This document shows, piece after piece, positions 13,835-64,000 of a DNA stretch of 64,000 nucleotides. The translations under genes were made by a program, and so were the position numbers. This stretch comes from a virus (Duplodnaviria > Caudoviricetes), in IMG/VR virus record IMGVR_UViG_3300027983_001732, positions 1,035 through 65,034 of that record; one strand, written 5' to 3'. A model generated the notes under the pieces. It did not search any database and had not been told where the DNA came from. It saw only the letters and a program-made list of their open reading frames with translations. Position 1 is the first letter of the stretch. Every line of letters starts with the position of its first letter.

Positions 13835-14839
13835 TTACTTTTCCATATCTTCAAGAGCACTTAAGAAATCCTCATCTTCGATGGGAATATCTTCGCTCTT
13901 TGTCGAGACGCTTGTTTCAGAGGCGACTGTTTCAGAGGCTGGAACTCCAGCAGGAACGGACACACCGCCCGGCTTGTGATCCATCAATTCTTGCACTTCT
14001 TCAGCAGCCTTCTTGCCCCACTTGGCATCAAAACTGTTAGTATCGAACTTCTCGAAATCATCAGGAATCAATCCACGATGGATCGCTAGTTCTTTTTCCA
14101 AAACTTCAAGATCACGAGGATTGCGAAGTTTTGTCAAGTCGTGAAGTGCTTCTGCCCACTTCTTAACTTCTTCTGGATTTCCAGCAGGAGAAGTGCTGCG
14201 AGCGAAACCAGACCGATCATACTTCGGAAAACCGTCTCCACTGGTGACTTCCTTTCGAATGATGAAGTCATAACCAGACTTGAGGTCTGTGAAGTTGCCC
14301 AGCTTAGAATCTGGATCACCTTCTTCTCCAACAATGGCACGAATAAGTTGCTTATGCAACAACTTGCCTACGCTAAGAATTCGTGGCCCGACGTTCGTCA
14401 GGATTGCTCCCCCATCACCCGGCATTGAACGGACGATTGCGTTGTAATAGTAACGCTCAACTGGCTTAATGTTACGAGCCTCTTCTTTTAGCTTATTGGC
14501 TTCATTAACATGACCAGCTTTCTCCAACTTGTCCGCTTGTGCCCACAGACCACTGTAATAATCACAAACAGGACAGGCAATGGATCGTTCCCATTTTCCA
14601 TTAACGAGCGGACGAGGGCAATGAATGCTGCGACCGTTCATTTTATGGGTTCTGTTATACTGATAAAGCTTCCCAGAACGCACTGGGGGCAAAATTCGTA
14701 TACAAAGAGTGCCTGTTTGTCCGGGCTTTACATCCGGCATTGGGACGAACTGGTCAAGAAAATTCGCTTGACCAGATTCACTGAGACGAGCGTCTTCGCC
14801 CATCATTTCTTCGAGATCGAGTGTTCCAAAATCTGACAT
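13835..14839 (-). CDS. gp32-like single-stranded DNA-binding protein
   Basis: IRILPP, CPVC, RYYYN, GYDFII, FPKYDRS, acidic C-terminus; adjacent to uvsX. Confidence 0.8.
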   Translation of the reverse strand: MSDFGTLDLEEMMGEDARLSESGQANFLDQFVPMPDVKPGQTGTLCIRILPPVRSGKLYQYNRTHKMNGRSIHCPRPLVNGKWERSIACPVCDYYSGLWAQADKLEKAGHVNEANKLKEEARNIKPVERYYYNAIVRSMPGDGGAILTNVGPRILSVGKLLHKQLIRAIVGEEGDPDSKLGNFTDLKSGYDFIIRKEVTSGDGFPKYDRSGFARSTSPAGNPEEVKKWAEALHDLTKLRNPRDLEVLEKELAIHRGLIPDDFEKFDTNSFDAKWGKKAAEEVQELMDHKPGGVSVPAGVPASETVASETSVSTKSEDIPIEDEDFLSALEDMEK

Positions 14840-17019: not shown

Positions 17020-17027
17020 AAACAAAA

Positions 17028-17061
17028 AGAGTGTGACAGAAGTTTTCTTCTGTCACACTCT
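17028..17061 (-). terminator. Strong intrinsic terminator downstream of a solitary repeat
   Basis: 15-bp perfect stem AGAGTGTGACAGAAG/CTTCTGTCACACTCT followed by T-tract on minus strand. Confidence 0.75.
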
Positions 17062-17086
17062 CAGTTAGATGAAGGCACTTTCGAGA

Positions 17087-17122
17087 GTGCCTTGATACTA
17101 TCGTTACGAATAGCATAGGCAC
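17087..17122 (-). repeat. Solitary variant of the array repeat (family A)
   Basis: Minus strand GTGCCTATGCTATTCGTAACGATAGTATCAAGGCAC, 29/36 identical to the array repeat. Confidence 0.8.
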
Positions 17123-17265
17123 AAGTAATGACATCATGTCTAGCCGCAGTTGTGTCTAATTCTTGTCAATCAGACACATAACCCCCATCTTTCATACTAT
17201 AGTGACAACTATTCATATTATGTTTTAGTATTGAAATTTTCGACAAATTTTATTATACATAAGAT

Positions 17266-18054
17266 ATGGGAAATTTTAAAAAATTCATAGAATCAACTGG
17301 AATAGTCAGACACGATTTCAGCCATTTATCAAAAGATGAAAGATTAAAACAAGGAAAAGATATTGGAGAGAAATTTATTAAAGATGAACTTCTCAATCAC
17401 GGAATCAAAATCGTCACAGTCGATAACATGATGTCACTTGACACTAAGTTGAAAATTGACGGATACCTCAACGGAAATCCCAGCGAACCAGTTCAAATTA
17501 AATTGAGAAAAACTGGTCGAGGTAGTGATGATATAGCATATGAACTAATTCTTGGCTTTGATCCAAAACTGCCAGTTGCAGATCAATTAAACAATCCAAG
17601 AACACAAGGTCGTGATTACAAAGGACAATCTGTAAAACATTATTTTGTTATGAATCAAGATGAAACCCAAATATATCACATTCCAGCAGATATGCTAAAA
17701 ACAACAGCACTTGACGCTATAAAGCAAACTAGCGGAATAATCGACAGAGCGTTCAGAACGAAAAATGGTGTTGAAATAAGACCAACTACCGATAATAGTT
17801 CTGGCGTCTCAAAATTGATGGTTTTTATACCAGCAGAACGAGTCGCAAAAGAAGCATACACAGTGGGTCAAGGAAAAATCCAACCTACATTCGGTGCCAA
17901 CTCTGGACCTCACACATCAATGTCAAAGAAAGATTTCAATATAGCTGCCGCAGAAGAACGATTAAAGAATCTTCAAGCAAAACAAAAATTAGCTAATGAT
18001 TTTCGTAAACAAAAGCAGGCAACTCCTGCTCAAACTGATGTTGATATTTCATAA
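17266..18054 (+). CDS. Hypothetical protein, possible PD-(D/E)xK fold, with capsid-targeting-like N-terminus
   Basis: MGNFKKFIE start; KIDG...VQIK motif. Confidence 0.55.
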   Translation: MGNFKKFIESTGIVRHDFSHLSKDERLKQGKDIGEKFIKDELLNHGIKIVTVDNMMSLDTKLKIDGYLNGNPSEPVQIKLRKTGRGSDDIAYELILGFDPKLPVADQLNNPRTQGRDYKGQSVKHYFVMNQDETQIYHIPADMLKTTALDAIKQTSGIIDRAFRTKNGVEIRPTTDNSSGVSKLMVFIPAERVAKEAYTVGQGKIQPTFGANSGPHTSMSKKDFNIAAAEERLKNLQAKQKLANDFRKQKQATPAQTDVDIS

Positions 18055-18464
18055 TGCGTGTTCAAAATAGTTCGATAAACAGACATGTTCGGCACCTTTC
18101 TTTCGAACCAATAATTATCTTCTCCACGACCATGATAAATATTCTCAATTGCAGCAGCAACGGCTGGAGATCGTGACATGCCTGCATGACAATGAACTAA
18201 GAAACATTCTACCTGCGGCCACATCTCTTTGACAAAATCCAAAATTTGCTTAGCCTTCTGTGCGTCAAATATCAACTCAGGAGGCGTTGTTGGTCGAGGA
18301 AAATCAATGTCTTCAAATGACATGTTTAATAGACCAACCCGATTCTCTTTAGAAAGAATCGGGTTTTCGCCTACATTGTCAACAATGCTAATGCCTGCCC
18401 ATGGCACAGAACATACAAACTTGCGAGCATCCGAAAGTGATCTTACTTCAATGGACCTTCTCAT
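18030..18464 (-). CDS. Protein tyrosine/dual-specificity phosphatase-like protein
   Basis: VHCHAGMSRS (CX5R). Confidence 0.8.
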   Translation of the reverse strand: MRRSIEVRSLSDARKFVCSVPWAGISIVDNVGENPILSKENRVGLLNMSFEDIDFPRPTTPPELIFDAQKAKQILDFVKEMWPQVECFLVHCHAGMSRSPAVAAAIENIYHGRGEDNYWFERKVPNMSVYRTILNTHYEISTSV

Positions 18465-19009
18465 TATCTAAAATTTCTTTCTAGCATGTGTTGAAAGCCT
18501 TTTGCTGATTTTGTCAATTCCGGCTTTATTGTAATTGGCTTTGTGTTTCTAACACTAGCAGACAACTCAATCGTTATTTTTGATCCACCACGATATGGTT
18601 CAACTTTGATTACTGTTTTTTGGTCTTCAATCAATCCACTATGAACTTCAATAAGTTTTGAACTGTAATTGTAAGTGTCTCCAGAATCAGAAGAGGATTC
18701 ACGCACTGTGAATTCCATCATACCTTTTTGTGTATCTTGTCTTAATCGTATATTGTCTCCATCCTTAGAAATTATTTCTCCGCCAGTTGATCTAGCGACT
18801 TCCTTTGGATGAGCCTTTAGCCATGTTGAGACAACACTTGGTTTTTCTCTAACTTCAAATTCTTTTGCGTGCCATGATTCTCCACCAAACGATGTAGATG
18901 TCACAAAAAATACGGCTACTACTGTGATTATTCCTTTAAGCATTTTTGTACCTGTAATTTGAAAACGAAAAGAGACCATACTGTTAACACAACAAGCATA
19001 GTCTCTCAT
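18464..19009 (-). CDS. Hypothetical exported protein
   Basis: Signal-peptide-like MLKGIITVVAVFFVTSTSFG; true start may be this downstream Met. Confidence 0.55.
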   Translation of the reverse strand: MRDYACCVNSMVSFRFQITGTKMLKGIITVVAVFFVTSTSFGGESWHAKEFEVREKPSVVSTWLKAHPKEVARSTGGEIISKDGDNIRLRQDTQKGMMEFTVRESSSDSGDTYNYSSKLIEVHSGLIEDQKTVIKVEPYRGGSKITIELSASVRNTKPITIKPELTKSAKGFQHMLERNFR

Positions 19010-19049
19010 CTGGTTTTATTTGAGTTCGGCACAAGCTTTCACTCATACA

Positions 19050-19084
19050 GTGCATAAAAGCTGGGAATTCCCAGCGATTTGCAC
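19050..19084 (-). repeat. Solitary repeat-like unit, family B
   Basis: Minus strand GTGCAAATCGCTGGGAATTCCCAGCTTTTATGCAC; matches the 28788 and 41707 copies. Confidence 0.75.
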
Positions 19085-19225
19085 AAAGAATGAACAAACT
19101 TCCTCATTAGCCTTCCTCTCTGCAATCCAGCTTGAAACATCATTGAGGTTAGTCTCATAACTATTCGAATTGGCAGATGACGGACTTAAACATATCTACA
19201 CTTATGAATTACATAATTTAAGAAA

Positions 19226-19261
19226 GTGCCTTGATTCTATCCTATTGAATAGCATCAGTAC
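19226..19261 (-). repeat. Solitary near-perfect array repeat (family A) overlapping the uvsY stop codon
   Basis: 35/36 identity; TGA stop at 19255-19257 lies inside the repeat. Confidence 0.92.
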
Positions 19262-19797
19262 ATCGCAGAACGTAAGTCATCTGCGAATCCGCCTTTTTCA
19301 TCTTCACTATAAGACTTGATTGTTTCTGAAATCAAATCATCATTAACTCCGCTGTGCATGTAACCTTTGCCACCCATGATGTCACTATTGAGCTTATCCA
19401 TCATCTTGCGTTGCATGTGCCCCAAACTCTGAGCGTTGTCGTGATTCTTGTCCCAAGCACGCAAATGTTGCTTCAATCTATTGACAGCATATTTTGCATC
19501 ATTAACTTTCTCTTTAAAAGCCACAACATCTGGATCAGCCTTTGCCTTTGCTTCAGCTAACTTGTCACTGCCGCCAGACTCCTTTGCTTCAATAAATCGA
19601 TCAGCCGACAGTTTTTCATGGCGTAATTCGAAGTTCTGTAAATTCTTCTCAGCTAATGAGAGATAAGCTCCGAAATTGTCGTAGTAACCAGCTTCAGTCT
19701 GAATATATTGAGACAGATTGTTTTCATTGAAACGAAGGTTTTCTGGATCAATTTCAACAATAACTCCTGCAAACTCTAACTTCTCTTTTCTTGACAT
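19255..19797 (-). CDS. UvsY-like recombination mediator
   Basis: Helical protein with SDKLAEAKAKADPDV pattern, downstream of helicase in a UvsX/gp32 context. Confidence 0.55.
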   Translation of the reverse strand: MSRKEKLEFAGVIVEIDPENLRFNENNLSQYIQTEAGYYDNFGAYLSLAEKNLQNFELRHEKLSADRFIEAKESGGSDKLAEAKAKADPDVVAFKEKVNDAKYAVNRLKQHLRAWDKNHDNAQSLGHMQRKMMDKLNSDIMGGKGYMHSGVNDDLISETIKSYSEDEKGGFADDLRSAMY

Positions 19798-19880
19798 GAT
19801 TTACCTTTCTTTTTTGTATGTTTTATATATGCCTTAATGTAATTTTATCATTTTTTTGTCGGAAAAACAAGTACGATTCT

Positions 19881-21386
19881 TTAGTCTTCTTTTTCGTCAA
19901 CCGCTGGAAGGATTTCATCATCTTCTGGTGCAAACGGCTTAATGATGTGATCCATTTTTACATCATCAACTACACTTTCTTTATGAGAGTTAAGCAGTTG
20001 CATATATGTGGATTGATGTATTTCTGTAATTTTTAGATTTTGTTTATTGAAGCCAAGATAAATTTGGAAGCGACTCAAACCATCACGTTGCTTAATTACA
20101 TACATCCTTCCAATTCCAAGCAATTTTTCTCCATCATTCTGCATTATAGAAAAACATCCATCCAATGGTCGTATCTGACCAAATGAATCAGCCAAATGTT
20201 CATCATCAAGACGACCGCCCTGATTTTTCTGAACTTCTTTCGATCCACGATTAGGCTGCATAGCAGTTGCTACAAAGACATTTTCTTCTGTAGCCAAAGC
20301 ACGCAAATCACGAACAGTTTTTTCACGACTCTCGTAAGTCTTCATTCCGGGCATGTCGGCCATTTCGCCAACATAGTCCACAATCACAAAATCTGGATCA
20401 AATCCATGAAACCTGAGTTGTGAAATATAGGCTCTAACAGTGTTTACTGTAGCTGTGCCAGCCGGAAACTGCTTGATTACCAATGGCATTTTAGATTCAT
20501 AATCTACGCCTTCAATCTTTGCCAATTCTTCAAATATGGACTCACGATGCCCATATAAGTTTTGCACTGGAAAACCAGTAAGAATGGAATCCATGCGGTC
20601 TGCCACTTTAACTTCTGCAAGTTCCAAAGAAATGTACACGCCCTTTTTGCCACGCATTAAATTTGTAGCTGAAAGACACGCCAACATTACTGATTTTCCA
20701 ACCCCTGAACCAGCAACAAATGAGATGATTTCACCTCTGCCATAACCGCCACCATTGATTGATTTGTCAATGGATTCCAGCCCAGTTATAAACCGTTCTT
20801 TATCTTCTTCATCTGTAACCATATCAGCATATCTCTGCTGAATTGTCTTGAAATAATCAAGACCTACTTCAAAATTCTGATGCGTTGTCATCGCTGTACG
20901 CATCATTTCATATATTTTTGTCCAAGTTTCTTCCGATTCAGGACTCTTGTCAATTTCTTTCAGCGAATTAGTAAATGCTTGTTTTACTGATTGAATCTTT
21001 GCAAAGTATGTGATTTTGTCTTGCAAGTATTCACGAGCATCCAATCCCGGCTGAAAATAATCATAAAGAGTATTAATTTCACCAATGTAATAAGATAAAG
21101 CTTTATTGTCCTTAAGACTGCTTTTTATTTCTTGGACAATGAAATCTTTGCCCGGAAGTATTCGGTATTTCTTAAAGAAATTAAATGCTAAAAATGCGGC
21201 TTTTTGATGTGCTTTGTTTGTGAAATACGCTGGCTTTATAAGGTCTAAAGATTGCAACAGAAATTGTCTGTCACAAAGAACAAGAGCGATAATGTGTCTC
21301 TGAAACTCCTCATCCCAACTGTACTTAACATCAGTTCCGTCTTCGTCTGGATCAGATAATGTTGGATCGTCAAAAATATCACTCAT
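19881..21386 (-). CDS. Replicative DnaB/gp41-like helicase
   Basis: AGSGVGKS, ISLEL, IVDY, TAMQPNR, LADSFG, IKQRDG. Confidence 0.9.
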   Translation of the reverse strand: MSDIFDDPTLSDPDEDGTDVKYSWDEEFQRHIIALVLCDRQFLLQSLDLIKPAYFTNKAHQKAAFLAFNFFKKYRILPGKDFIVQEIKSSLKDNKALSYYIGEINTLYDYFQPGLDAREYLQDKITYFAKIQSVKQAFTNSLKEIDKSPESEETWTKIYEMMRTAMTTHQNFEVGLDYFKTIQQRYADMVTDEEDKERFITGLESIDKSINGGGYGRGEIISFVAGSGVGKSVMLACLSATNLMRGKKGVYISLELAEVKVADRMDSILTGFPVQNLYGHRESIFEELAKIEGVDYESKMPLVIKQFPAGTATVNTVRAYISQLRFHGFDPDFVIVDYVGEMADMPGMKTYESREKTVRDLRALATEENVFVATAMQPNRGSKEVQKNQGGRLDDEHLADSFGQIRPLDGCFSIMQNDGEKLLGIGRMYVIKQRDGLSRFQIYLGFNKQNLKITEIHQSTYMQLLNSHKESVVDDVKMDHIIKPFAPEDDEILPAVDEKED

Positions 21387-21486
21387 TTATACCTCTTCTT
21401 TAACTAGGCTTGTTAGCCGAGATATTACAGAAAAGTCTGAATTTCGTCTAGTCAGCTTGAATAAGAAATCTGAACTGTGCAGGCAA

Positions 21487-23355
21487 GTGCCTTGATTCTA
21501 TCCTATTGAATAGCATCAGCACAAGAAAAATCGGTCTTTTAGTGCCTTGATTCTATCCTATTGAATAGCATCAGCACTTGTTCTTTTTGTGGCTCTTCTG
21601 CCAACGTACTTTGCGTGCCTTGATTCTATCCTATTGAATAGCATCAGCACAGTAAGTCTGATTCGTGCCTTGATTCTATCCTATTGAATAGCATCAGCAC
21701 TTTTGACACTTGATGACTTACTGGTCTCTTGCTGGTGCCTTAATTCTATCCTATTGAATAGCATCAGCACGAGGATCAAAGACCTTTGTGAGATCAAAGG
21801 TTTCAAGTGCCTTGATTCTATCCTAGCAATTTGACCGCTGTCGTCGGTTGCTTTGTGCCTTGATTCTATCCTATTGAATAGCATCAGCACCAAACCCTTT
21901 TTTGACATCACTAACTGGTGCCTTGATTCTATCCTATTGAATAGCATCAGCACACCCGAGTCTTCAGTGGACACGTGCCTTGATTCTATCCTATTGAATA
22001 GCATCAGCACCGAGGGGCAATTTTTCACCGTTTGTCGGCAATCAAAGTGCCTTAATTCTATCCTATTGAATAGCATCAGCACCTGATTTCAAGATTCGAA
22101 TCTTGTCCAGTGAGTAACGTGCCTTGATTCTATCCTATTGAATAGCATCAGCACATGAATTTAACTGTTCTTGTCGTGTCATTGTGTCTAGTGCCTTGAT
22201 TCTATCCTATTGAATAGCATCAGCACAAAATAGAAGTGAGTTCCCCGACCTGTAGTGACTTCCGTGCCTTGATTATATCCCATTGAATAGCATCAGCACT
22301 TGTGAGGGAAGAAGACTCAAATCTTATCTGACAAGTGCCTTGATTCTATCCTATTGAATAGCATCAGCACTGTTACTAACCGACACTCAACAAGCGGAGT
22401 CAAATGTGCCTTGATTCTATCCTATTGAATAGCATCAGCACCTCATTGCCGCCGTCAGGGTGATAGGTGCCTTGATTCTATCCTATTGAATAGCATCAGC
22501 ACTGGTGTGTGTATTCCAGAAGAGAGAGGTTGAGAGGAGTGCCTTGATTCTATCCTATTGAATAGCATCAGCACCGTTGGTTCTATTTGTGTTTTTGACC
22601 AACTCAAGAGTGCCTTGATTCTATCCTATTGAATAGCATCAGCACGTGATCAATTGCTCAAAGTAGGCAGTTGGCTGTGAGTGCCTTGATTCTATCCTAT
22701 TGAATAGCATCAGCACTTTAGTGTCTGACCTTTCCAGTGTGTATATCTGCTGTGCCTTGATTCTATCCTATTGAATAGCATCAGCACACAATTCCGTTTC
22801 CGCACATCCACGCAAACCTGTTGGTGCCTTGATTCTATCCTATTGAATAGCATCAGCACGCTTGTCGCTCAAGTTCTCTGATCTCATCAGGATAGTGCCT
22901 TGATTCTATCCTATTGAATAGCATCAGCACGTGTATCCACCTGCTGATAAATCTCCAGTTTCTAGTGCCTTGATTCTATCCTATTGAATAGCATCAGCAC
23001 TTTTTCTGCTGGTGCGTCCGAAATTAACCCCCCAGTGCCTTGATTCTATCCTATTGAATAGCATCAGCACGTATACCCCCCAAAACTCAAAGCGTATGTC
23101 CTTTGTGCCTTGATTCTATCCTATTGAATAGCATCAGCACTGCTGGTCACACAGACAGCAGCAGTTAAGTTTGTGAGTGCCTTGATTCTATCCTATTGAA
23201 TAGCATCAGCACATCTTGACGATCGTTTTCTTTACGAGACGCTTGCTGTGCCTTGATTCTATCCTATTGAATAGCATCAGCACCTCTAAGACAGCAAAAC
23301 TTATCTTTCCTTCAGAGCCGTGCCTTGATTCTATCCTATTGAATAGCATCAGCAC
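21487..23355 (-). CRISPR. CRISPR array: 28 repeats (one truncated), 27 spacers; sense repeat GTGCTGATGCTATTCAATAGGATAGAATCAAGGCAC
   Basis: 36-nt repeats counted by hand; most spacers 34-37 nt; shortened spacers mostly at the cas-distal end; starts 65 nt after the cas12h stop. Confidence 0.98.
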
Positions 23356-23420
23356 TGCTGTCTTCGTAAGTCCAATCAGCCAAACAACATAAACATTCAA
23401 AAATCATGCACGTGGCACAA

Positions 23421-26186
23421 CTAAGCCGTATGATCTTTCAAAATCGTTTTAAAGTCAACGTCTTTTGTCGTAAGTGCTTTAGCACCAACATCTTTTGAAG
23501 AATCATGCACCTCTGGTAAGGCAAAATTGTTGTATCTTCCATCTGGATCACATGTTACGTCAAATTCTTGGCAATTCGGCTTCTCCACGGCTAATTGCTT
23601 GATTTTGTTTACCATCTCGTTGTGCAGTTCGCAAGTAACAATACAAGAGGAATGTGCATAAACAAACTGGTTAATCAATCGAGTTTGAGTGCTATCAATT
23701 TTTTTTGCAAATGTAACTCGACCTCTATCATCCGAAACAAATTTAGGGACAGAAGAACCGTACTTCAAATTGAAAAATCTCTTAATACGCTTGCCAATGG
23801 CTTCTTCAGGTTTCTTAATCGCATTGATGCTATCCTGAGTGGAATTCGGCTTATTTTCATATTCCTTGACATAGAATTTGTATGGACAAACAGAATGGTT
23901 TAAACCTTGAATCAAAATATTCATCGTGGCAGCCAGATCTGAATCAATCCAACCCAATTGTTTGTCTCTGACAACATACAACCTAGATTTGTTTTTGTCA
24001 TCACGCCATCCGGGATTGGAAGTAACAGGATCGCTTTGTGAAGTGCCATTCTTGGCGACTTTTACAAAACCAACTCCAATTTTTTCAAGAGCTTCTATAA
24101 TGTATTTTAATAATGTCGCCGCCGAAAACAAACGCAACAAAGCATTGTTGTTTTTGTCTGAATCAAATATGAAATCAAGATCTTCTCCAAACACAACATT
24201 ACAATCTTTCATTTCATTGGCAATCTTTGACGCAAGTTGTCTCAAAACAAAATTTCTGAAATTTGCTCTGCTTTTATCAAACTTTGCGACTTTTACCAGT
24301 TTTTCTCCCGATTTCAAATGAATTCTATTATAAGATTCAGCCATTGAAGCACACTGATCCATAGCCTCAATCAAACGAATATTATCTGCACAATCACGAT
24401 ATCCTCCAGAACGCATCTCAAACTTAATTTTTCTCAAGCGAGAATTGATTTTTTTAACCCATGACTGAATTAAATATCGAGTTGAAGAAGATTTTGTGTC
24501 TCCACATAAAATCAAAAAATCACGAGTGTCTTCACCCACATGTTCTTTAACTGCGTTAGAAACTTTAAATTCTCTGATTGCTCCAATAACACGTCTGGCA
24601 TCGTCTCTGATTTCTATCAAATTTTTGATTCTTGGACCATTTGCCACCAACATGAATGGTTTTTTAATGAGATTCCCTGAACCATAATCTAAAGCGTTTA
24701 ACTGTCCGCTTTTGTCGTCACGATAAACAACTGCTTTAACGGCAGCGACAGGATTTGACACATTCAGATCAATAGCTCCGACGACTATTTTGTCAGGAAG
24801 ATTCTCTACATTTTCTTTCTTTGGACAAGCCGACATAAAAAATTCTGCAATTTTGAAGTTTTTCTCGTCGTGATGAATCGAATAAGGGAGTGATACAAAA
24901 AACCCAGAATCTGTATTACGCAAACCAATCTCTTTAAGAACCCCAGAAATTTTATCTCCTGTATGAGATGCTGCTTTTACGGCCTTCTTGCCTTTACTTA
25001 TCGACTTATGACAGAAATTCAAAGAATAACCAGTACGACCATTTTTATTCCTAATTTCATCAAAAACAATACCGCTGAAATAACAAGATGCAGCACACCT
25101 TATGACTCCGACACCGACGATTTCAATAAGCACATCGCCAGAATCTTCAACTGACACAGTGAAGTTTCCTAGAGATCCCTGCCCTACAGGAACTTTATAG
25201 TCATTTCTATTTGGATCGAAACAAGGATACAATTTTCTTTTTTCTAACTGTTTCTTTGTCCTCCAGCAAGAATAAGCTGACATAATTTCTGAATATGATG
25301 ATTCAATCAGAATCCTGTATTTATTCTTCTTAAGTTCTTTAACAGCAAGTCTGATATCTGTTTTTTCTCCAGTTCCTTTTTTTACATGATCTATGCCTTT
25401 TGTCAAAACATACTTTGTGAGACCTGAATTTTTCGATTCTAATTCTGCTGCAAAACAACAAATAGAATCATAAACAGGCCCTTGTTTATCATTCATCGAC
25501 AGTTTAATCTTTTCTGTTTCCAACAAATGGTTGTTGTACTTCTCGAAAATGGACCTCAAATCCCTGCCAACCATCTCTATGAGAATGCGACAATAATTAC
25601 AATCTCTTGAACGAATGCAAGACAATCCAAATGCCAATCTGAGATCCACTCCTAGCGATCTTTCAATTGATGCCAATCTGGGAGACACTTCCGCCCAAAT
25701 TTCAGGCAGTGGTAAATTTTTAACTCCATATTCCAACCATTCTTCAATGCAAATTTGAGAAAGTTGTTCATCGGTCTTGAAGTATTCTTTAATCTTGTTT
25801 TCATCGAGCAAAGGCAAGGCTGACAAAAAATCATTCTTTTTTTGTGTTAATTTAGCCTTCCCCAGAGACTTGTAATTTCTATAGAAAACATTGTAACAAG
25901 AAGAAGCATTTTCACCTCCTTTAAGAAGAAGTTCAATAAAACTAACTGCCAACTGTTCTTTTTTGGCGTCACCGATTGTTAATGATCTCAATCTTTCGGA
26001 TTCTTCTTTAGATGTGTAAAACACTTCATCTTCGGCATTTGTGCCATAGCCAATTGCCATCCACCCAAAAAATAAATTCAAAAAAGAACGGTAGTCCGAC
26101 TGTAAATCTGCATACCACTGCATGACTTCTTCAGCAGTATTCTTTGCCTTAAGGTTTCCGGTTCGAATAAAAGATCTTGTAGCCAT
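23421..26186 (-). CDS. cas12h: Type V CRISPR effector, Cas12h-like (subtype V-H), about 921 aa
   Basis: RuvC motifs GAIDLN, VFGEDL, IDSDLAA; segments WYADLQ, LKGGxxxSSCY, ALDYGxG, GLNHSVCPY resemble Cas12h1 as recalled from memory; adjacent array with GTGCTG...GCAC repeat; start at MATRS after an AAAGGGA RBS. Confidence 0.85.
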   Translation of the reverse strand: MATRSFIRTGNLKAKNTAEEVMQWYADLQSDYRSFLNLFFGWMAIGYGTNAEDEVFYTSKEESERLRSLTIGDAKKEQLAVSFIELLLKGGENASSCYNVFYRNYKSLGKAKLTQKKNDFLSALPLLDENKIKEYFKTDEQLSQICIEEWLEYGVKNLPLPEIWAEVSPRLASIERSLGVDLRLAFGLSCIRSRDCNYCRILIEMVGRDLRSIFEKYNNHLLETEKIKLSMNDKQGPVYDSICCFAAELESKNSGLTKYVLTKGIDHVKKGTGEKTDIRLAVKELKKNKYRILIESSYSEIMSAYSCWRTKKQLEKRKLYPCFDPNRNDYKVPVGQGSLGNFTVSVEDSGDVLIEIVGVGVIRCAASCYFSGIVFDEIRNKNGRTGYSLNFCHKSISKGKKAVKAASHTGDKISGVLKEIGLRNTDSGFFVSLPYSIHHDEKNFKIAEFFMSACPKKENVENLPDKIVVGAIDLNVSNPVAAVKAVVYRDDKSGQLNALDYGSGNLIKKPFMLVANGPRIKNLIEIRDDARRVIGAIREFKVSNAVKEHVGEDTRDFLILCGDTKSSSTRYLIQSWVKKINSRLRKIKFEMRSGGYRDCADNIRLIEAMDQCASMAESYNRIHLKSGEKLVKVAKFDKSRANFRNFVLRQLASKIANEMKDCNVVFGEDLDFIFDSDKNNNALLRLFSAATLLKYIIEALEKIGVGFVKVAKNGTSQSDPVTSNPGWRDDKNKSRLYVVRDKQLGWIDSDLAATMNILIQGLNHSVCPYKFYVKEYENKPNSTQDSINAIKKPEEAIGKRIKRFFNLKYGSSVPKFVSDDRGRVTFAKKIDSTQTRLINQFVYAHSSCIVTCELHNEMVNKIKQLAVEKPNCQEFDVTCDPDGRYNNFALPEVHDSSKDVGAKALTTKDVDFKTILKDHTA

Positions 26187-26224
26187 TGATGTCCCTTTGA
26201 GTTGTTGATTGTAATCAAACAATC

Positions 26225-27505
26225 TTAAAGAACACAATCAATGTTGTCAACTCGAATCACATCAGAATTATCCTGTGTTAACTGAGCAAGGATTTCTGCA
26301 TATTTTAACCCAACATTTTGCCATGAGTTTTCTGTAACAAAGTTTTTTGATTTCTGTAACAATGAGTTCCTGTAATCTCCAGATGTGAATACTTTAGCGA
26401 TCTCATCAGCTAATTCTTCTGGATTGCTTGGTCGTGGAACAACTCCATCGAGATCATCAAACAAATGACAGTCACTAGCGATCACGGGAATGCCATTTGA
26501 CATCGCCTTGCGAATCGCACCAGATGCCCCATAAACCGTATTCTTCGGATCGTTCTTGTATGGGAAGACCGCCAACTTAGCAGTCCTCAAGAAGTTCTGC
26601 ATGTGCTGCTCAGACAAATAGCCACGCAACACAACTACGTTATCTTGTAACCCTTTCTTTTCAACTAGATCTCTAATCTCATTGTAATATCGAGCCTGAA
26701 TTGAACGTGTGTGATTGCTCTCGCTGCACAAGAAACAATAAAATATATCCTTAAACTCTTCTGATCTGTTCTTCAATATACTTACAGCCTCTATTGCACA
26801 ATCAAGACCTTTATAATCAAAACCAAACCCAAATTGAATAATCGTGCGTTCGTTTTGAAATATATTCCACAATTGCTGTGTGTTTTCATATAAGTTGCAA
26901 CCATGCGGCAAAACAAAAACTTCATTACGATGACCCAGCCTCTCCAAACATATTTTTCCATTTGGATTATGAGTAATGATGTTTTTGATATAAGAAGTGC
27001 AAATTGTTTTATCAAGATGCTCATAAACCGAATGCAAAGTAATCACATAAGGAATGTTATTAAACATTTCAAGTAATTTAAGGAAATGAGTGGCTTTTGG
27101 AAAAATTCCAAATTCATGTTGGATGAATATTATGTCTGGACCATAATCAATGATCTGTTGAGCTAAATCAATGCAACTCTGCCCACGTTTCCAACAGCGT
27201 TCAACATCATCATGAGCACCTTCCATAGTTTCTGCAAATATCTTGACTTCTTTGACATGTTTGCGAAGTTCTGGAATTAGTTGCTCGCTATAAGTTGCGA
27301 TTCCACATTGATCGCCCCAATTACAGATCCCGGCAACCTTCAGTTTACTCAACGGCTTTGCATTTCCTACAACAACCTTCTTTCCGACCAGAGACTTGTT
27401 TTCTTCCAAGCCCGGCACATAAATGGTTTTGTTGCCGCCGATACGAATGGCTTTATCTTTAGAAACCGCCTGTATCATTCCTGCTTGATTGATCGAAACG
27501 TACAT
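26225..27505 (-). CDS. GT4-like glycosyltransferase
   Basis: CGIATYS, IQHEFGIF, FGFGFDYKG, SGAIRKAMSNGIPVIAS. Confidence 0.85.
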   Translation of the reverse strand: MYVSINQAGMIQAVSKDKAIRIGGNKTIYVPGLEENKSLVGKKVVVGNAKPLSKLKVAGICNWGDQCGIATYSEQLIPELRKHVKEVKIFAETMEGAHDDVERCWKRGQSCIDLAQQIIDYGPDIIFIQHEFGIFPKATHFLKLLEMFNNIPYVITLHSVYEHLDKTICTSYIKNIITHNPNGKICLERLGHRNEVFVLPHGCNLYENTQQLWNIFQNERTIIQFGFGFDYKGLDCAIEAVSILKNRSEEFKDIFYCFLCSESNHTRSIQARYYNEIRDLVEKKGLQDNVVVLRGYLSEQHMQNFLRTAKLAVFPYKNDPKNTVYGASGAIRKAMSNGIPVIASDCHLFDDLDGVVPRPSNPEELADEIAKVFTSGDYRNSLLQKSKNFVTENSWQNVGLKYAEILAQLTQDNSDVIRVDNIDCVL

Positions 27506-28466
27506 ATTTTAGGCTTTCCCGCAATAACTTTTCTTGTGATTTTTTAGCTTGTATTAATTCTGGTTTTTTATCTGAAATCATTTCATTCACAAGAACTTTC
27601 AATTGAGAAGAGCCAAAACTCCAATAAGAAAGACCGAAATTTTCCAAGCCACAAGTATTTAGGAATGATTCATTTTTATCATGATGCAATAAATCAATAA
27701 AAGGTGTGTCGGATAAAATACTAAAAATTGTTGAGTGCAAACGAGTGCTAATTACAACATCACAAGCTGCAATGACATCAAGGGTCTGTTGGACAGACAA
27801 TCTTTCGTAAATTGAAAGGTTTTTCTTCCAAAACTTGCAACGACTTGAAATTAACCCGTTTGTTACCCTGTCGTCATAAGGAGCACCGGTAGACATGGGA
27901 AAAAATACAAAACTAGCTGGAGTCGAATCAGCTACCGCAGCAATATCTTGAGCAGCTTTATTCAATGTAAGAAAATCTCTGGCAAGCTGTGCGTCCTTAG
28001 CTTGCCCTAAATGCCCGTTAAGAACAACTCCTACGACTTTTGAATAAAGATCGATCTTGTTCTCTGAAAACATCGTCTGCAACAAATCTTTTCCTGCGGA
28101 TGGGTTTGGTTGAAGGCAAAAAGCCGAATCAGCCCCCAAATAACAAGGAACGTCATTATCTCTTAAAAGCTGATATGAGGATTTATCACGAACAACAATG
28201 CCGTCAAATTCTTTAAGAAGTGAGAATGGTGAGTGATTATTTGCAGATGCGGAAAAGACATATCTCTTTTCAACCTTAGCATCAAGTGCAATGCGAACAT
28301 AACTCTCAGATAAAATGTTTCCGCCGCCGAGAATACAAACATCAGCGGTCCCAGTATCATTGAACACAAAATCGTATTCAGGAAACAGCATTGGAAATGT
28401 AAGTTTGTAGCTTTCATCGCCAATATTGAATTTTCCATAAAAGCCAACTACCATTACTTTTTTCAT
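27459..28466 (-). CDS. Polysaccharide pyruvyl transferase family protein
   Basis: GFYGKFNIGD, LGGGNIL, VRDKSS, STRLHSTI. Confidence 0.85.
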   Translation of the reverse strand: MKKVMVVGFYGKFNIGDESYKLTFPMLFPEYDFVFNDTGTADVCILGGGNILSESYVRIALDAKVEKRYVFSASANNHSPFSLLKEFDGIVVRDKSSYQLLRDNDVPCYLGADSAFCLQPNPSAGKDLLQTMFSENKIDLYSKVVGVVLNGHLGQAKDAQLARDFLTLNKAAQDIAAVADSTPASFVFFPMSTGAPYDDRVTNGLISSRCKFWKKNLSIYERLSVQQTLDVIAACDVVISTRLHSTIFSILSDTPFIDLLHHDKNESFLNTCGLENFGLSYWSFGSSQLKVLVNEMISDKKPELIQAKKSQEKLLRESLKYVRFDQSSRNDTGGF

Positions 28467-28484
28467 GAAAACTCCGACGATTAA

Positions 28485-28775
28485 TCAAACAAACTCGGCG
28501 ATCCATTTCACATACGTACTTTCTGAGGTAATATTGGCAATCACGACAAAACCTTCTGGTGTGTTGTGTGTACTAATCATATTAACTTGACCAAGACAGC
28601 ACTGTATTCCCTCATGATTGTCTAGGTTTAACCATACATTACGTGGCTGTTGTGTTGTTGGAACAAACACCTCACTCCATCCATGACTAAGTTCCAAAGA
28701 TCCTTTTTCGTGCGGATAGTCTCGATATGGAACCATAACACGCACAATTTCAACCGGTCTTCTAATTCCGCCCAT
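28485..28775 (-). CDS. Hypothetical protein
   Basis: ATG at 28775 after a GGGGGA RBS; the ORF-track extension upstream is the family B repeat. Confidence 0.55.
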   Translation of the reverse strand: MGGIRRPVEIVRVMVPYRDYPHEKGSLELSHGWSEVFVPTTQQPRNVWLNLDNHEGIQCCLGQVNMISTHNTPEGFVVIANITSESTYVKWIAEFV

Positions 28776-28787
28776 CAGTCCCCCTAT

Positions 28788-28881
28788 GTGCCATAAAAGC
28801 CGGGAATGCCCAGCGATCTGCACTGTTTGTTATAGTTTAAAATTACTAAAAAAATAGTAATAAATGCCCAGCGATCTGCAC
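28788..28881 (-). repeat. Family B unit: full 36-nt copy (28788-28823) plus 5' half copy (28863-28881), 39 nt apart
   Basis: GTGCAGATCGCTGGGCATTCCCGGCTTTTATGGCAC; the first 19 nt are repeated exactly upstream. Confidence 0.8.
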
Positions 28882-28936
28882 TATTTTCTGCAATATACAA
28901 TCGAAATAATTCTTCTTGTTTTATATAAACATAGCA

Positions 28937-29512
28937 TTATATAGCATTATTGGCTAAATAATCATAGTCCGAAAGCGAAACCAATCCAGTTCTCCAAGAC
29001 TTTTCTCTCGTGATTTTTTTGCCTAGAGACTTTTGGGCATTCCAAATGATTTGTTTGCAATAAGTTGTAAATTTTAGATCCAAATTGAGGACTTTATCTC
29101 GCTTTGGTCGCTCTTTCTCTGGAACGTACTTATTAACTAATTGATCAAGAATGATTTGCTGATGCAGACCAAATTTCTGACGATTAGCTCCATGACGACG
29201 ACGATTTTCCCACAAAATTGTCAGCTCGATAAAAACTTTCATAATGAACTTATCTTTGATGTATTTGTTAAGAACATCAAAACAGCTTTCGATATATGTC
29301 TGCCTTTTGTAATAGCTGCCCGCCCTGACTAAGGCAATTCTTAGCTCTTGAACATCGTCATCTGGGTCATTGACATTGGCGTTATTGGCATTTTTTCTTT
29401 TGAGTTCCCATGCTGCATAATGCGCCAATTTTCCGAACTTTTTATCCAAAACCTCATATTCCGAATCTGTAATCGGAAATAAATTCATAATATTTTCAAG
29501 CGTTCCTAACAT
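28937..29512 (-). CDS. Sigma-factor-like protein (possible late sigma, gp55-like)
   Basis: Region-2-like DDDVQELRIALVRA and KFTTYCKQIIWN; no region 4 evident. Confidence 0.5.
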   Translation of the reverse strand: MLGTLENIMNLFPITDSEYEVLDKKFGKLAHYAAWELKRKNANNANVNDPDDDVQELRIALVRAGSYYKRQTYIESCFDVLNKYIKDKFIMKVFIELTILWENRRRHGANRQKFGLHQQIILDQLVNKYVPEKERPKRDKVLNLDLKFTTYCKQIIWNAQKSLGKKITREKSWRTGLVSLSDYDYLANNAI

Positions 29513-29549
29513 GTGCCTCCTTTAATTTGACCACTTTTTTCGAAAATTC

Positions 29550-30872
29550 CTAGTTGTTCCATAACACCCTCATATCATCGAGTCTAACTCCAAATTTGAT
29601 CTCGACGCTCATCTTCAAGCCGGGACAAAGCCGTGATTCTGCCTCTAATGTATCTTTCATTATTCTGTAGGTGTTTTTTGCTATTTGTGTAGAACAAATT
29701 ACGCCGTAACCGTCATGTATGCTGAAAGCTAATTGTGCTCCAGTGTTGTTTAATGCTCGCCAAAGTTCAATCAATTTCTCTTGACATACTGTGGCGGACA
29801 CAGACTGTACAACAAAATTGCGAGCTAAGTAGGCTTTATTGGATTCGTATTTTCTTGGTCTTCCAAAATGATCTTTAACTGTTCCTGTGTCGCATGCAAT
29901 TCTTTGTTTCTCTTTAACCCAATTAATAGCTGTCGAGAAAATAGAATTTATATTTTTTATTACGCTAACTGCCGCTGACTCTGGAACTCCTAACATATCT
30001 GCGAGAGATACAGGTCCAAGTCCATATACGACAGGTAGAAACATCTTCTTTGACATTTTGCGTTTAATCTCTGTGTCGCATGGCAAGCCAGTAACAACTT
30101 CATAGATCTTGCAATGTAAGTCTTCTCCTGAATCTAAAATTTCTTTGAGTTTATTGTCACCTGATAACCATTGCAAAACAACCACTTCGCAGAACCGAAA
30201 GTCAGCAGTTGCGAAACGAAGGCCGTAACCCTTTGTTTTCATAACTTTTTTAACATCTGGTCCCAAGTTGTGAGGCAGGTAGCATCGTGAAAATTTCTTA
30301 GAACAACTTAACCTTCCGTTCCTTTGTCCCTCAATTTCATAGTAGGGATGCTCGGTGCGTCTGGTCTCGCTGTTTAATAATCCTGTCGTTTCGATTGTTG
30401 GTAAAACTCGATAGGACAACGGAATGTGAATGGATTTGTATATATCTTTCCAATCATTGTTTTGAAAAACGATGTTAATTCGATTAGATGCTTCTACAAA
30501 ATTATCAGGGACATTTTTTTGAATGTCCAAAAAAGCTTCAATGACTTTTAGATCAAGAATATTGTTCTTTGGTGTTACAAATTTTGTAGTATGATATTTG
30601 CAAAAGCTTGCTAAAGATTTGAAGTTCCAAAAAAACACTCTAGGCACAAACTCTTTATTAAAAATTGTGGCGTCGAGAAGACCCATAACAGAAGCTGTGT
30701 TGCCTGATGAAATATCTAACTCCACTCGTGAGTTTTTACCACAAACAATAATCTTAAATAAAATACTGTCTGTAAAATCCAATGTTTCTGGTTCTGTTTT
30801 CACAAAAACCACTTCATTGGATTCCAGTAGTTCAGCCAGTAAAATTGATGTCTCTTCAAGATTCATACTCAA
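29550..30872 (-). CDS. Short family A DNA polymerase-like protein
   Basis: Motif A ADFRFCEVVVL, DLH, motif B RKMSKKMFLPVVYG, FGRPR, NFVVQS, motif C IHDG. Confidence 0.8.
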   Translation of the reverse strand: MSMNLEETSILLAELLESNEVVFVKTEPETLDFTDSILFKIIVCGKNSRVELDISSGNTASVMGLLDATIFNKEFVPRVFFWNFKSLASFCKYHTTKFVTPKNNILDLKVIEAFLDIQKNVPDNFVEASNRINIVFQNNDWKDIYKSIHIPLSYRVLPTIETTGLLNSETRRTEHPYYEIEGQRNGRLSCSKKFSRCYLPHNLGPDVKKVMKTKGYGLRFATADFRFCEVVVLQWLSGDNKLKEILDSGEDLHCKIYEVVTGLPCDTEIKRKMSKKMFLPVVYGLGPVSLADMLGVPESAAVSVIKNINSIFSTAINWVKEKQRIACDTGTVKDHFGRPRKYESNKAYLARNFVVQSVSATVCQEKLIELWRALNNTGAQLAFSIHDGYGVICSTQIAKNTYRIMKDTLEAESRLCPGLKMSVEIKFGVRLDDMRVLWNN

Positions 30873-30939
30873 ATCTTATCAGATCAGAGATTCCGAAACT
30901 ACCCTGAATCAATTAAATACTTTGTAACTTATCTCAGTC

Positions 30940-30976
30940 GTGCCTTGATCCTGATCCTGTTGAATGGCATAAGAAC
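30940..30976 (-). repeat. Solitary degenerate array repeat (family A) upstream of the polymerase gene
   Basis: Minus strand GTTCTTATGCCATTCAACAGGATCAGGATCAAGGCAC; 5 substitutions and 1 insertion relative to the array repeat. Confidence 0.75.
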
Positions 30977-31059
30977 CTTCAGTCCATAAGGGATGCCATG
31001 GTTGTGATCATAATAGATATAAAAAATAAAATCACTTTATATTTCCTTAAGTAATAAGG

Positions 31060-31432
31060 CGATTTACAAAGTGCGTGCATTCTCTACACCCAGTGAAAAT
31101 GACTCTCACTGCGTCTATTATGATACAACTTGAAGTTGTTTTAATTGATGGTAGTTGTGCTTCACACTTGGGTGATTCCCAAGTGATAATCACGAATCTC
31201 CTAACCAGATGACCTGCTCGTAGCCCCGGCAGCCGCTTTAAAAAGCAGAACGAGCATTCATGGCATCGCCGGGTTTAGTGATCTGGATTACCTAGATTCT
31301 TGACACAAGACGCTGAGTTCCCTAAACTCGTCCGGTTGCGGTAAGACCTACCCGCTGTCAAGGTTTTTCGCCGGATTTCAAGTGACCATCTGACCTGAAA
31401 TACCCGACCTGTTAATTTGAAAGTAGCTTCAA
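31060..31432 (-). ncRNA. Candidate structured non-coding RNA or long leader
   Basis: No ORF; many inverted repeats; GC-richer than flanks; downstream of a sigma70-like promoter. Confidence 0.4.
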
Positions 31433-31437
31433 CTCTA

Positions 31438-31466
31438 ATCTTATCAAGTTAACTTAAAGAAAGCAA
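31438..31466 (-). promoter_or_regulatory. Sigma70-like promoter with extended -10
   Basis: TTGCTT-N17-TAAGAT with TGn immediately before the -10. Confidence 0.55.
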
Positions 31467-31555
31467 GACCTTTTCTGTAAAAAGATCCATTGTTATAAAC
31501 TTTTAAAACAGATACAGTACATGCTCACAAGCATAAATATGAAAATTCTTTAATT

Positions 31556-31591
31556 GTGCTGATGTTATTCAGCAGGATTGCATTAATGCAC
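31556..31591 (+). repeat. Solitary array-repeat variant (family A) containing the RBS and start codon of the next gene
   Basis: GTGCTGATGTTATTCAGCAGGATTGCATTAATGCAC, 29/36 identity; ATG at 31586. Confidence 0.75.
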
Positions 31592-63621: not shown

Positions 63622-64000
63622 ATGTTTTGGTTAGCTTTGTTGGTTTTGTTTATTATTAGCATATTTGCATACATCTTTATTGCAATTATTACAATGAAAA
63701 CGAAACCACGATCGAAATATTCTGTTGTGCATTATGATGGATGGGGAGATTTTAGGATGGTTCATACATCTCAACTAAACCATGATGATGACAAATCTGT
63801 CGATGATGACAAATCTGTCGATGATGACAAATCTGTCGATGATGACAAATCTGTCGATGATGACAAATCTGTCGATGATGACAAATCTGTCGATGATGAC
63901 AAATCTGTCGATGATGACAAATCTGTCGATGATGACAAATCTGTCGATGATGACAAATCTGTCGATGATGACAAATCTGTCGATGATGACAAATCTGTCG
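63622..64000 (+). CDS. Partial membrane-anchored protein with DDDKSV repeats
   Basis: ATG 63622, N-terminal TM (MFWLALLVLFIISIFAYIFIAII), open to the window end. Confidence 0.6.
   Translation, partial: MFWLALLVLFIISIFAYIFIAIITMKTKPRSKYSVVHYDGWGDFRMVHTSQLNHDDDKSVDDDKSVDDDKSVDDDKSVDDDKSVDDDKSVDDDKSVDDDKSVDDDKSVDDDKSVDDDKSVDDDKSV
63784..64000 (+). repeat. Perfect 18-nt tandem repeat GATGATGACAAATCTGTC, at least 12 copies
   Basis: Directly visible; runs off the window end. Confidence 0.95.

Follow-up and report, generated by a model that had tools for sequence, protein, structure and literature searches.

A type V-H CRISPR-Cas locus with cognate solitary repeats in the replication gene block of a probable T4-like giant phage

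The Cas12h effector and its array

The 64,000-nucleotide (nt) stretch analyzed here, called the window throughout, spans bases 1035-65034 of the IMG/VR virus record IMGVR_UViG_3300027983_001732, for which CheckV gives a completeness of 13%. Packed on the minus strand between the genes for a GT4 glycosyltransferase and a replicative helicase, both on that same strand, is a CRISPR (clustered regularly interspaced short palindromic repeat) locus of type V-H, made up of a cas12h effector gene and an array directly downstream; further copies of its repeat stand alone outside the array, one of them at the end of orf180, the gene after the helicase. The features of the locus, from upstream to downstream, are as follows:

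26222..26250, minus strand: promoter-like site TTGACA-17-TAAGAT (10/12) upstream of cas12h, within the 3' end of the GT4 gene; consensus scan
23421..26186, minus strand: cas12h coding sequence, 921 amino acids (aa) from the ATG at 26186; assigned by PADLOC Cas12h, Cas12h1 homology and tree
23458..23430, minus strand: promoter-like site at the upstream edge of the 65-nt gap; consensus scan
23356..23420, minus strand: gap of 65 nt between cas12h stop codon and first repeat, a candidate leader
21487..23355, minus strand: CRISPR array, 27 full 36-nt repeats (GTGCTGATGCTATTCAATAGGATAGAATCAAGGCAC) and 27 spacers
21807..21825, minus strand: truncated repeat (3' 19 nt alone) inside the array; repeat scan and independent contig
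21387..21486, minus strand: trailer of 100 nt from last repeat to helicase ATG, with no terminator-like site
19060..19075, minus strand: terminator-like hairpin, the first downstream of array, helicase, orf180 and solitary repeat; consensus scan

An earlier, sequence-only reading of this DNA had proposed a Cas12h-like protein of about 921 aa with intact D/E/D RuvC residues, and both points are borne out. The open reading frame (ORF) extends at most over 23421..26237 (minus strand), where a TTG start would give 938 aa; the 921-aa form that begins at the ATG is identical to a public database protein (P0002), which is present on three contigs, the longest of 108,637 bases. The PADLOC Cas12h profile matches from end to end (1508 bits, ORF residues 18-930 against profile positions 1-838 of 838), a score so far above expectation for 41% identity to Cas12h1 that a near relative is probably within the profile seed. 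The best match among PDB sequences is Cas12h1 (8y9l; further structures 8y9m, 8y9n and 9l12), with E 8e-191, 640 bits and 41% identity between query residues 25-887 and chain residues 8-849 of 870, and the next, Cas12X and Cas12j19, reach 27-40 bits in the RuvC region alone. Pfam returned no family for the effector, and NCBIfam returned only a sub-threshold TnpB match (33 bits).

A HMMER search of 1.84 billion cluster representatives returned 90 proteins at E<=1e-3, 50 of them at E<=1e-30, and one of these family matches (P0007) is Cas12h1 itself (2002 bits, 870/870 residues). We built a FastTree phylogeny of 47 rows, consisting of 42 family members of at least 780 aa and five distant Cas12-like rows as outgroup, and leaving out rows shorter than 780 aa, P0001 and P0005. 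The window protein is sister to P0003 (72% identical, support 100) within a six-member subclade that includes Cas12h1 (support 98). Its RuvC triad, D473, E668 and D750 in 921-aa numbering, is invariant in 20/20 aligned family members and aligns with D465, E658 and D740 of Cas12h1, which are that enzyme's catalytic residues (PMC11830025, in excerpt). The sequence-only reading had allowed that the protein might cluster with another subtype or be identical to an effector already characterized; it does neither, being 41% identical to Cas12h1 and placed in a subclade with 98% support. Judged by alignment and phylogeny, the effector is a true full-length Cas12h of type V-H, distinct from other subtypes and from the characterized Cas12h1, and protein and locus are a new, diverged member of the type. 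The absence of cas1, cas2 and cas4, also claimed before, holds for the record: Pfam models of Cas1, Cas2 and Cas4 matched nothing at E<=1 across all 65,034 bases, an estimated 13% of the genome, and did match in control genomes.

The array agrees with its earlier description as 28 repeats beginning 65 nt after the gene: the last base of the stop codon is 23421, the array opens with a repeat at 23355, and the 28 are 27 full copies and one truncated 19-nt copy. The full copies are nearly uniform (23/27 identical, three with one mismatch and one with two), and the stretch around the truncated copy (21741-21880) recurs with 0 differences in an independent contig from public run X1. At up to three mismatches the repeat occurs 28 times in the window and 0 times in 100 shuffles, and one of the 28 matches, at 19226-19261, lies outside the array. 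Spacers of 34-37 nt make up 21 of the 27; the six short ones measure 25, 21, 27, 29, 14 and 19 nt, and five of these fall among the last eight of the array, a pattern that suggests an array without renewal, wearing away at the end far from the promoter. The repeat folds into a long stem-loop from its first base, with no 5' flank (-12 kcal/mol, z -3.9). This is the fold described for the CRISPR RNA (crRNA) of Cas12h1, in which the full 36-nt repeat forms a long stem-loop without 5' flank and is followed by a guide of about 26 nt (PMC11830025, in excerpt), and it points to the same type of handle. Genomes of 185,579 species held no match to the 28-nt core of the repeat, and when we queried IMG/VR with shorter repeat and conserved-site patterns, only two virus records described below, G001 and G003, came up. 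A 133-aa ORF at 21681-22082 (minus strand) lies wholly inside the array and is an artefact of reading through repeats.

With the effector as tblastn query, 50,697 phage records held no match, and a search of viral contigs for related loci, with the effector protein and alignment A2 as queries, found no relative. A metagenome scan found one locus, L002. Its effector is 39% identical to that of the window, and its 36-nt repeat begins and ends alike, stands on the effector's strand and has 20 copies at E<=0.002. This locus (L002:397-7848 of a 66.5-kb metagenome contig) has features of its own. Immediately upstream of cas12h, and likewise on its strand, is a 1001-aa Cas9-like ORF with matches to HNH, RuvC_III and the Cas9 alpha-lobe; a 126-aa ORF lies between the two, and the 20-repeat array starts at the cas12h stop codon, so that two class 2 effectors stand in tandem. 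The contig also holds a weak Gp23 capsid match (25 bits), a D12 methyltransferase and a sigma factor.

The locus itself was found in several public data sets. Run X1 (freshwater) contains the whole stretch with no differences, runs X4 (estuary) and X5 (microbial mat) contain near-identical pieces, and the sequences in run X6 (freshwater) are mixed, a relative at about 90% identity among them. The sequence-only reading had suggested searching viral databases with the spacers. We found no match by blastn of the array against the reference phage collection (50,697 records) and only chance-level matches of 18 nt or less against the masked window, L002 and the virus records G001 to G005; a 24-nt piece of spacer 1 had 0 matches in IMG/VR and in the 185,579 species genomes. 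Two metagenome contigs did match. A contig from X5 matches spacer 1 (23284-23316) and continues on either side into over 255 letters of unrelated sequence, and a short contig from X6 matches spacer 14 (22371-22405). Both candidate protospacers carry 5'-ATG-3' beside the first guide base on the guide-sense strand, a position that fixes the direction of the array. The count is two of two, each taken from the loose ends of one contig with 30 letters to read, and 33 further loose ends lie outside this count. Cas12h1 recognizes the protospacer-adjacent motif (PAM) RTR, in a wider form DHR, and was assayed with ATG (PMC11830025, in excerpt). The ATG flanks modestly suggest an active system with a PAM of the Cas12h family.

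The layout would allow transcription to continue from the array into the helicase gene. A simple consensus scan of the minus strand found no terminator-like site from 23421 to 21386, in a block of same-strand genes, as the sequence-only reading had remarked; upstream, one such site is at 28814..28799 (minus strand). Promoter-like sites across 18000-31500 are no commoner than in shuffles by the same kind of scan. The last ~60 nt of the trailer are partly conserved in the relative L009, in which the helicase gene directly follows a NUDIX gene. Downstream, the helicase and orf180 form a 2.2-kb segment with a repeat at each side, followed by the terminator-like hairpin at 19060-19075. That hairpin is within a 38-nt insert absent from the relatives L008 and L009, and an X6 contig skips 19043-19082, which spans it. 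From this anatomy, the earlier suggestion that crRNA processing could generate the 5' end of the helicase messenger RNA (mRNA) is reasonable.

The hairpin recurs elsewhere. The element GCTGGGAATTCCCAGC with its T-run is present twice in the window, at 19050-19085 and as a variant at 28814..28799 (28799-28823), and an X1 contig matches 28788-28823 between unrelated flanks. By its distribution it looks like a small mobile hairpin.

The carrier genome and its relatives without Cas12h

With the helicase as bait we recovered four further virus records (G002 to G005; 26-68 kb, CheckV completeness 5-14%), which are 37-89% identical to the window in amino-acid sequence and 64-89% identical in the helicase. 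All share one gene order: polA, orf191, orf112, pyruvyl transferase, GT4, a slot of differing content, helicase, orf180, and onward to the single-strand-binding protein gene and UvsX. The corresponding genes of the window include:

29550-30872, minus strand: PolA, family A polymerase; Pfam and PHROG
27459-28466, minus strand: pyruvyl transferase, conserved upstream neighbour; Pfam
26225-27505, minus strand: GT4 glycosyltransferase, conserved upstream neighbour; Pfam
19881..21386, minus strand: DnaB/gp41-like replicative helicase; phrog_19 at E 3e-59, Pfam DnaB_C
19255..19797, minus strand: orf180, conserved in relatives; phrog_2058 (function unknown) the sole match

In the gene order given by the sequence-only reading, the polymerase, pyruvyl transferase, GT4 and helicase stand, whereas two names do not: the 'sigma-like' ORF at 28937-29512 has no Pfam or PHROG match, and 'uvsY', which is orf180, matches phrog_2058 only and has no Pfam match at or above the curated cut-off.

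None of the four relatives has a match to Cas12h, and a covariance model of the repeat found 0 matches at E<0.1 in their 203,814 bases. In a tblastx comparison with G003, homology ends at 21401 and restarts at 26273, exactly the cas12h-array segment. The content of the slot varies among relatives: L009 has two unknown ORFs and a NUDIX gene there, and in L010 the place is taken by NUDIX and an IS110 transposase. Because relatives hold other cargo between GT4 and helicase, this is a variable site, and synteny identifies the V-H locus as cargo that occupies a variable slot within conserved replication genes.

The sequence-only reading took the contig to be phage rather than cellular, and this is upheld by its status as an IMG/VR virus record, by UvsX-, gp32-, UvsW- and gp41-like genes and by synteny with four virus records. 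The window is arranged as two divergent, strand-coherent arms, and besides the genes above it encodes a UvsX-like recombinase, two gp32-like proteins, a UvsW-like helicase, an amidoligase and an ADP-ribosylglycohydrolase, together with host-like genes for an ABC ATPase, an aminotransferase and an OmpA-domain protein. We found no capsid, portal, terminase or tail gene in its 64 kb, no transfer RNA (tRNA) gene, no ribosomal-protein gene among the scanned ORFs, and no Rfam family (rRNA included) at the gathering score, with chance-level matches at E<=1. One relative, G002, is labelled 'provirus'. Division of length by CheckV completeness implies a genome of about 0.48-0.52 Mb for all six records (the window's, G001 and the four relatives), which is an estimate and not a measurement.

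The X6 contigs differ from the window unevenly along window positions 20551-27948: 4/768 positions in cas12h and 12/687 at the cas12h/GT4 junction, against 53/594 in the helicase and 44/530 in the overlap of pyruvyl transferase and GT4. This contrast could reflect either a mixture of strains or a recent transfer of the cas12h cassette between diverged backbones.

Solitary repeats outside the array

Copies of the repeat that stand alone are found at four places in the window, named here by the coordinate of their first base:

19226..19261, minus strand: solitary repeat, 35/36 identical, overlapping the TGA stop codon of orf180; repeat scan
17027..17122, minus strand: crRNA-like unit, with a repeat-like hairpin at 17087-17122, then 24 nt, then a 16-bp intrinsic terminator at 17027-17062
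30940..30976, minus strand: decayed solitary repeat of 37 nt with one indel, in the leader of the leftward operon ~65 nt before polA
31556..31591, plus strand: decayed solitary repeat, 29/36 identical, at the start of the first rightward gene

A fifth, perfect copy (36/36) is in G001, a 36-kb virus record with CheckV completeness of 7% and a guanine-plus-cytosine (GC) content of 37.7%, against ~38% in the window. None of the five has a second repeat nearby, and all five are oriented in the sense of the local genes, at gene or transcript boundaries. The window has four in the ~62 kb outside its array against 0 in 204 kb of kin, and, compared with kin, each of its copies marks the junction of an indel or a replacement. 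A covariance-model search of positions 1-21400 with filters off found no further copies. Contigs from X1 that carry the repeat in unrelated flanks suggest at least two further contexts.

The copy at 19261 precedes the 19060-19075 terminator by ~150 nt. At this site relatives have ~470 nt that include an extra small gene, and homology restarts right after the repeat. The X1 assembly graph breaks at this copy and at the last array repeat, which yields a 2286-nt piece (19229-21514). The copy at 17122 is 29/36 identical to the repeat, and its changes strengthen the stem (-14.4 versus -12 kcal/mol); promoter-like sites lie 95-160 nt upstream. The small transcription unit around it is kept in L008 and L009 except for the ~25 nt that make the repeat, and since these relatives lack Cas12h, the unit predates the insertion of the repeat. 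In coordinates, the unit is at 17027-17280 in the window, L008:4480-4695 and L009:12510-12735, with a promoter-like block containing TTGACA and the 16-bp terminator; it has no Rfam match, and the 24 nt after the repeat had 0 matches in IMG/VR.

The remaining two copies in the window have lost the repeat-like fold. The copy at 30976 is a 37-nt insertion relative to L009. The copy at 31556 has gained an in-frame ATG, at 31586, through a G-to-T change. The match to G003 restarts exactly past this repeat, with 25 of the first 26 nt matching, and where the window has the repeat G003 carries GTG, an RTR PAM. This is the arrangement expected from a crossover between spacer and protospacer.

In G001 the copy lies between tRNA-Phe and tRNA-Ser in an 11-tRNA cluster and on the tRNA strand. 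This record encodes a tail sheath, a sheath stabilizer, a baseplate hub, gp46/47-like nuclease subunits and a ribonucleotide reductase; its 36 kb hold no array and no cas12h, and tblastx found no gene shared with the kin contigs. The 11 tRNAs (five Leu, two Tyr, two Ser and two Phe; L006:3043-9698) are on one strand within less than 7 kb, near a translation-elongation-factor-like gene and a homing HNH endonuclease. Such a tRNA cluster with an elongation-factor-like gene is typical of very large phages.

We dropped the idea that solitary repeats regulate cas12h itself: the sequences next to them have no second site in the window or G001 (100 kb). A tRNA remnant after the G001 repeat was likewise discarded, its alignment score of 28 falling within the range of shuffles (mean 23.4, sd 3.0, max 33).

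Interpretation of the locus and its solitary repeats

We consider it likely that an intact V-H locus is carried as cargo by a T4-like phage and that the solitary repeats arose by recombination, with the well-folding copies probably behaving like crRNAs. The array would be transcribed together with cas12h, probably with read-through into the helicase and orf180. By analogy with Cas12h1, the precursor would be cut at the 5' edge of each 36-nt repeat to give a full-repeat handle and a guide of ~26 nt, and the complex would nick or cut DNA beside a 5'-RTR/DHR PAM. Its targets would presumably be competing mobile elements in the same host. The use in inter-phage competition proposed by the sequence-only reading is plausible. 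With no Cas1-Cas2, the phage itself presumably does not renew the array, and its far end erodes.

Recombination between an array unit and phage DNA would set a repeat directly before a former protospacer. Because solitary copies occur in the Cas12h-bearing genome and not in its kin, sit at indel junctions and range from perfect to decayed, recombination is the simplest account of them. The copies at 19261, 17122 and in G001 are likely to be bound by Cas12h and processed to crRNA-like RNAs with fixed guides, and a side effect of such processing would be to cut the helicase-orf180 message at both ends. An RNA derived from the 31556 copy would guide Cas12h to relatives that lack the insertion and would spare the carrier, whose own site is protected because the repeat ends in CAC. 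We rate scars, some of them possibly co-opted, above designed regulators.

Several observations weigh against parts of this account. The window has no structural gene, and the tie to myoviruses rests on G001, which has only the repeat, GC content and CheckV-implied genome size in common with the window. Co-transcription, processing and the effect on the helicase message are steps that we infer. One review table marks self-cleavage of pre-crRNA by Cas12h as 'No'; a mature Cas12h1 crRNA was obtained from a co-expressed array, with mention of 'processing sites' (PMC11830025, in excerpt), and another source lists Cas12h among self-processors (PMC11576732). At guide position 3 the spacer-1 match carries a different base, as would be expected of an escape variant, and the spacers had no match in 50,697 phage records or in G001 to G005, one spacer having been tried against IMG/VR and the species genomes. 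Three further points favor scars: the repeat-like fold is gone from the 30976 and 31556 copies; for three of the four copies in the window, the guide has only a poor match in the relatives at hand; and a cut at the 5' edge of the 19261 copy would remove the stop codon of orf180.

That the solitary repeats are purely scars, without function, left when a crossover places a repeat beside a former target and then decaying, is a real possibility to which we give a little less than an even chance. Recombination is very frequent in replication of the T4-like kind. Decay is graded among the copies, from 36/36 (G001) and 35/36 (19261) through 29/36 (17122 and 31556) to the copy with an indel (30976), two have lost the hairpin, and each window copy marks a junction relative to kin. 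The overlap of the 19261 copy with a stop codon and the start codon supplied by the 31556 copy look like accommodation rather than design, and the GTG PAM of G003 is the remnant expected of a spacer-protospacer crossover. Three observations fit functionless scars poorly: all five copies are sense-oriented, the 17122 copy has a strengthened stem (-14.4 versus -12 kcal/mol) and its own promoter-terminator unit, and no surviving spacer resembles the sequences next to solitary copies. The opposite extreme, in which the repeats exclude kin through hard-wired guides and Cas12h processes transcripts at the boundaries of helicase-orf180, is a tentative idea that we think unlikely; here planted repeats would turn conserved sequences into guides, the repeat would replace the carrier's own PAM, and the cuts that yield crRNAs would also free the helicase-orf180 message from the pre-crRNA. 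A role against the host chromosome or in phage gene expression, through repression, host takeover or RNA processing of the replication operon, seems to us doubtful. Spacers against host genes have been described for huge-phage CRISPR systems (PMC7162821, in excerpt) and crRNA-like regulatory RNAs are known in cellular systems (10.1101/2024.12.27.630466, in excerpt); the locus lies amid essential replication genes, repeats bracket helicase-orf180, and Cas12h1 is mainly a nickase. But neither the spacers nor the sequences next to solitary repeats match anything else in the window or G001 beyond chance, the relatives express the same replication genes without Cas12h, and the catalytic triad is intact.

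Solitary repeats might also serve as RNA anti-CRISPRs (Racrs), decoys against the Cas12h of a rival phage or of the host, G001 then being a different phage. Viral solitary repeats have been shown to bind Cas proteins (PMC10651486, in excerpt), and G001 has one perfect copy and neither array nor cas12h in its 36 kb, placed between tRNA-Phe and tRNA-Ser on their strand and so probably highly transcribed. We nevertheless regard this as improbable: the window copies share a genome with their cognate effector and array, where a decoy would blunt the phage's own system, the 28-nt core is in 0 of 185,579 species genomes, and G001 resembles the window in GC content (37.7% versus ~38%) and CheckV-implied size and may be the same phage. 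Least credible, and in our view highly improbable, is a cellular, plasmid or degraded-prophage contig with Cas12h as an ordinary host defense locus. The lack of capsid, portal, terminase and tail genes in 64 kb, the host-like ABC ATPase, aminotransferase and OmpA-domain protein and the 'provirus' label of G002 would suit such an origin. Against it, the window is an IMG/VR virus record with T4-type UvsX, two gp32-like, UvsW-like and gp41-like genes in two strand-coherent arms and has no tRNA gene, no Rfam match and no ribosomal-protein gene among the scanned ORFs. Moreover, five independent virus records share its module or repeat, one of them with tail sheath, sheath stabilizer, baseplate hub, gp46/47-like genes and 11 tRNAs.

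Type V-H was first described from metagenomes, and Cas12h is a compact nickase of genome-editing interest. We compared the locus with the known systems closest to it. Like the locus of Cas12h1, to which its effector is 41% identical over the full length, it has the same RuvC triad, a 36-nt stem-loop repeat without 5' flank, an array directly downstream on the same strand, no adaptation genes and a candidate PAM, ATG, that fits RTR/DHR. It differs in a longer protein (921 aa versus 870 aa, with a longer C-terminal tail), in repeat sequence, in its dispersed solitary repeats and in its carrier, a probable very large T4-like phage. The excerpted text of PMC11830025 gives the origin of Cas12h1 as unknown, with phages only suggested, and Cas12h is held to derive from Cas12b with loss of the adaptation module (PMC10691335). 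In the literature we found no Cas12h on an identified phage genome, and a prior listing in the supplements of Al-Shayeb 2022 or PMC10651486 is possible.

For huge phages, the excerpted text of PMC7162821 gives types II, V-I, V-U, V-F and Cas-Phi and a median of six repeats per array. The window resembles these systems in having a class 2 effector and an array without Cas1, Cas2 and Cas4 and in the proposed use against competitors; it differs in its subtype, V-H not being among those given there, in its 27 repeats against a median of six, and in the position of the locus inside a replication gene block. The Racrs in the excerpted text of PMC10651486 are, like the copies here, single viral repeats that fold like the repeat; the 17122 copy has promoter-like sites and a terminator, and that of G001 is in a tRNA cluster. 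Unlike the copies here, Racrs mimic host repeats and stand apart from cas genes, whereas the window has a cognate effector and array on the same contig, several of its copies overlap gene starts or stops, and two are decayed. Cellular crRNA-like RNAs (crlRNAs) likewise pair a degenerate repeat with a fixed guide-like sequence away from the array (10.1101/2024.12.27.630466, in excerpt); in contrast to these, the setting here is a phage, and the five fixed guides have no partial target in 100 kb. Our literature search found no solitary repeats that are cognate to a phage's own effector, lie at gene boundaries and bracket an essential helicase; the supplements of PMC10651486, which searched IMG/VR3 and was available in excerpt, may list some.

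The contig gives Cas12h a natural setting in a probable T4-like giant phage, with Cas12h-free relatives for comparison, and supplies a diverged orthologue and a second data point for repeat and PAM. The dispersed cognate solitary repeats are its more unusual part. If processed, they would have a CRISPR effector shaping mRNAs or carrying fixed guides against kin; if scars, they would record spacer-mediated recombination in giant phages. Were the kin-exclusion idea true, the CRISPR system would be at once a device for excluding kin, an RNA-processing system for essential genes and a driver of mosaicism.

Some minor features lie elsewhere in the window. The two gp32-like single-strand-binding protein genes are placed one per arm (13835-14839 and 58805-59890). 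The divergent intergenic region between the arms, at 31150-31450, is GC-richer than its surroundings, looks structured and is 74-80% identical in nucleotide sequence in G003; it matches no Rfam family and may serve as an origin or encode a non-coding RNA. At 39351-39508, a Ser-Gln-Gln-rich 18/51-nt repeat stands at the C-terminal end of a 735-aa ORF, and the window ends (63784-64000) in twelve perfect copies of an 18-nt unit, within an ORF that runs off its edge.

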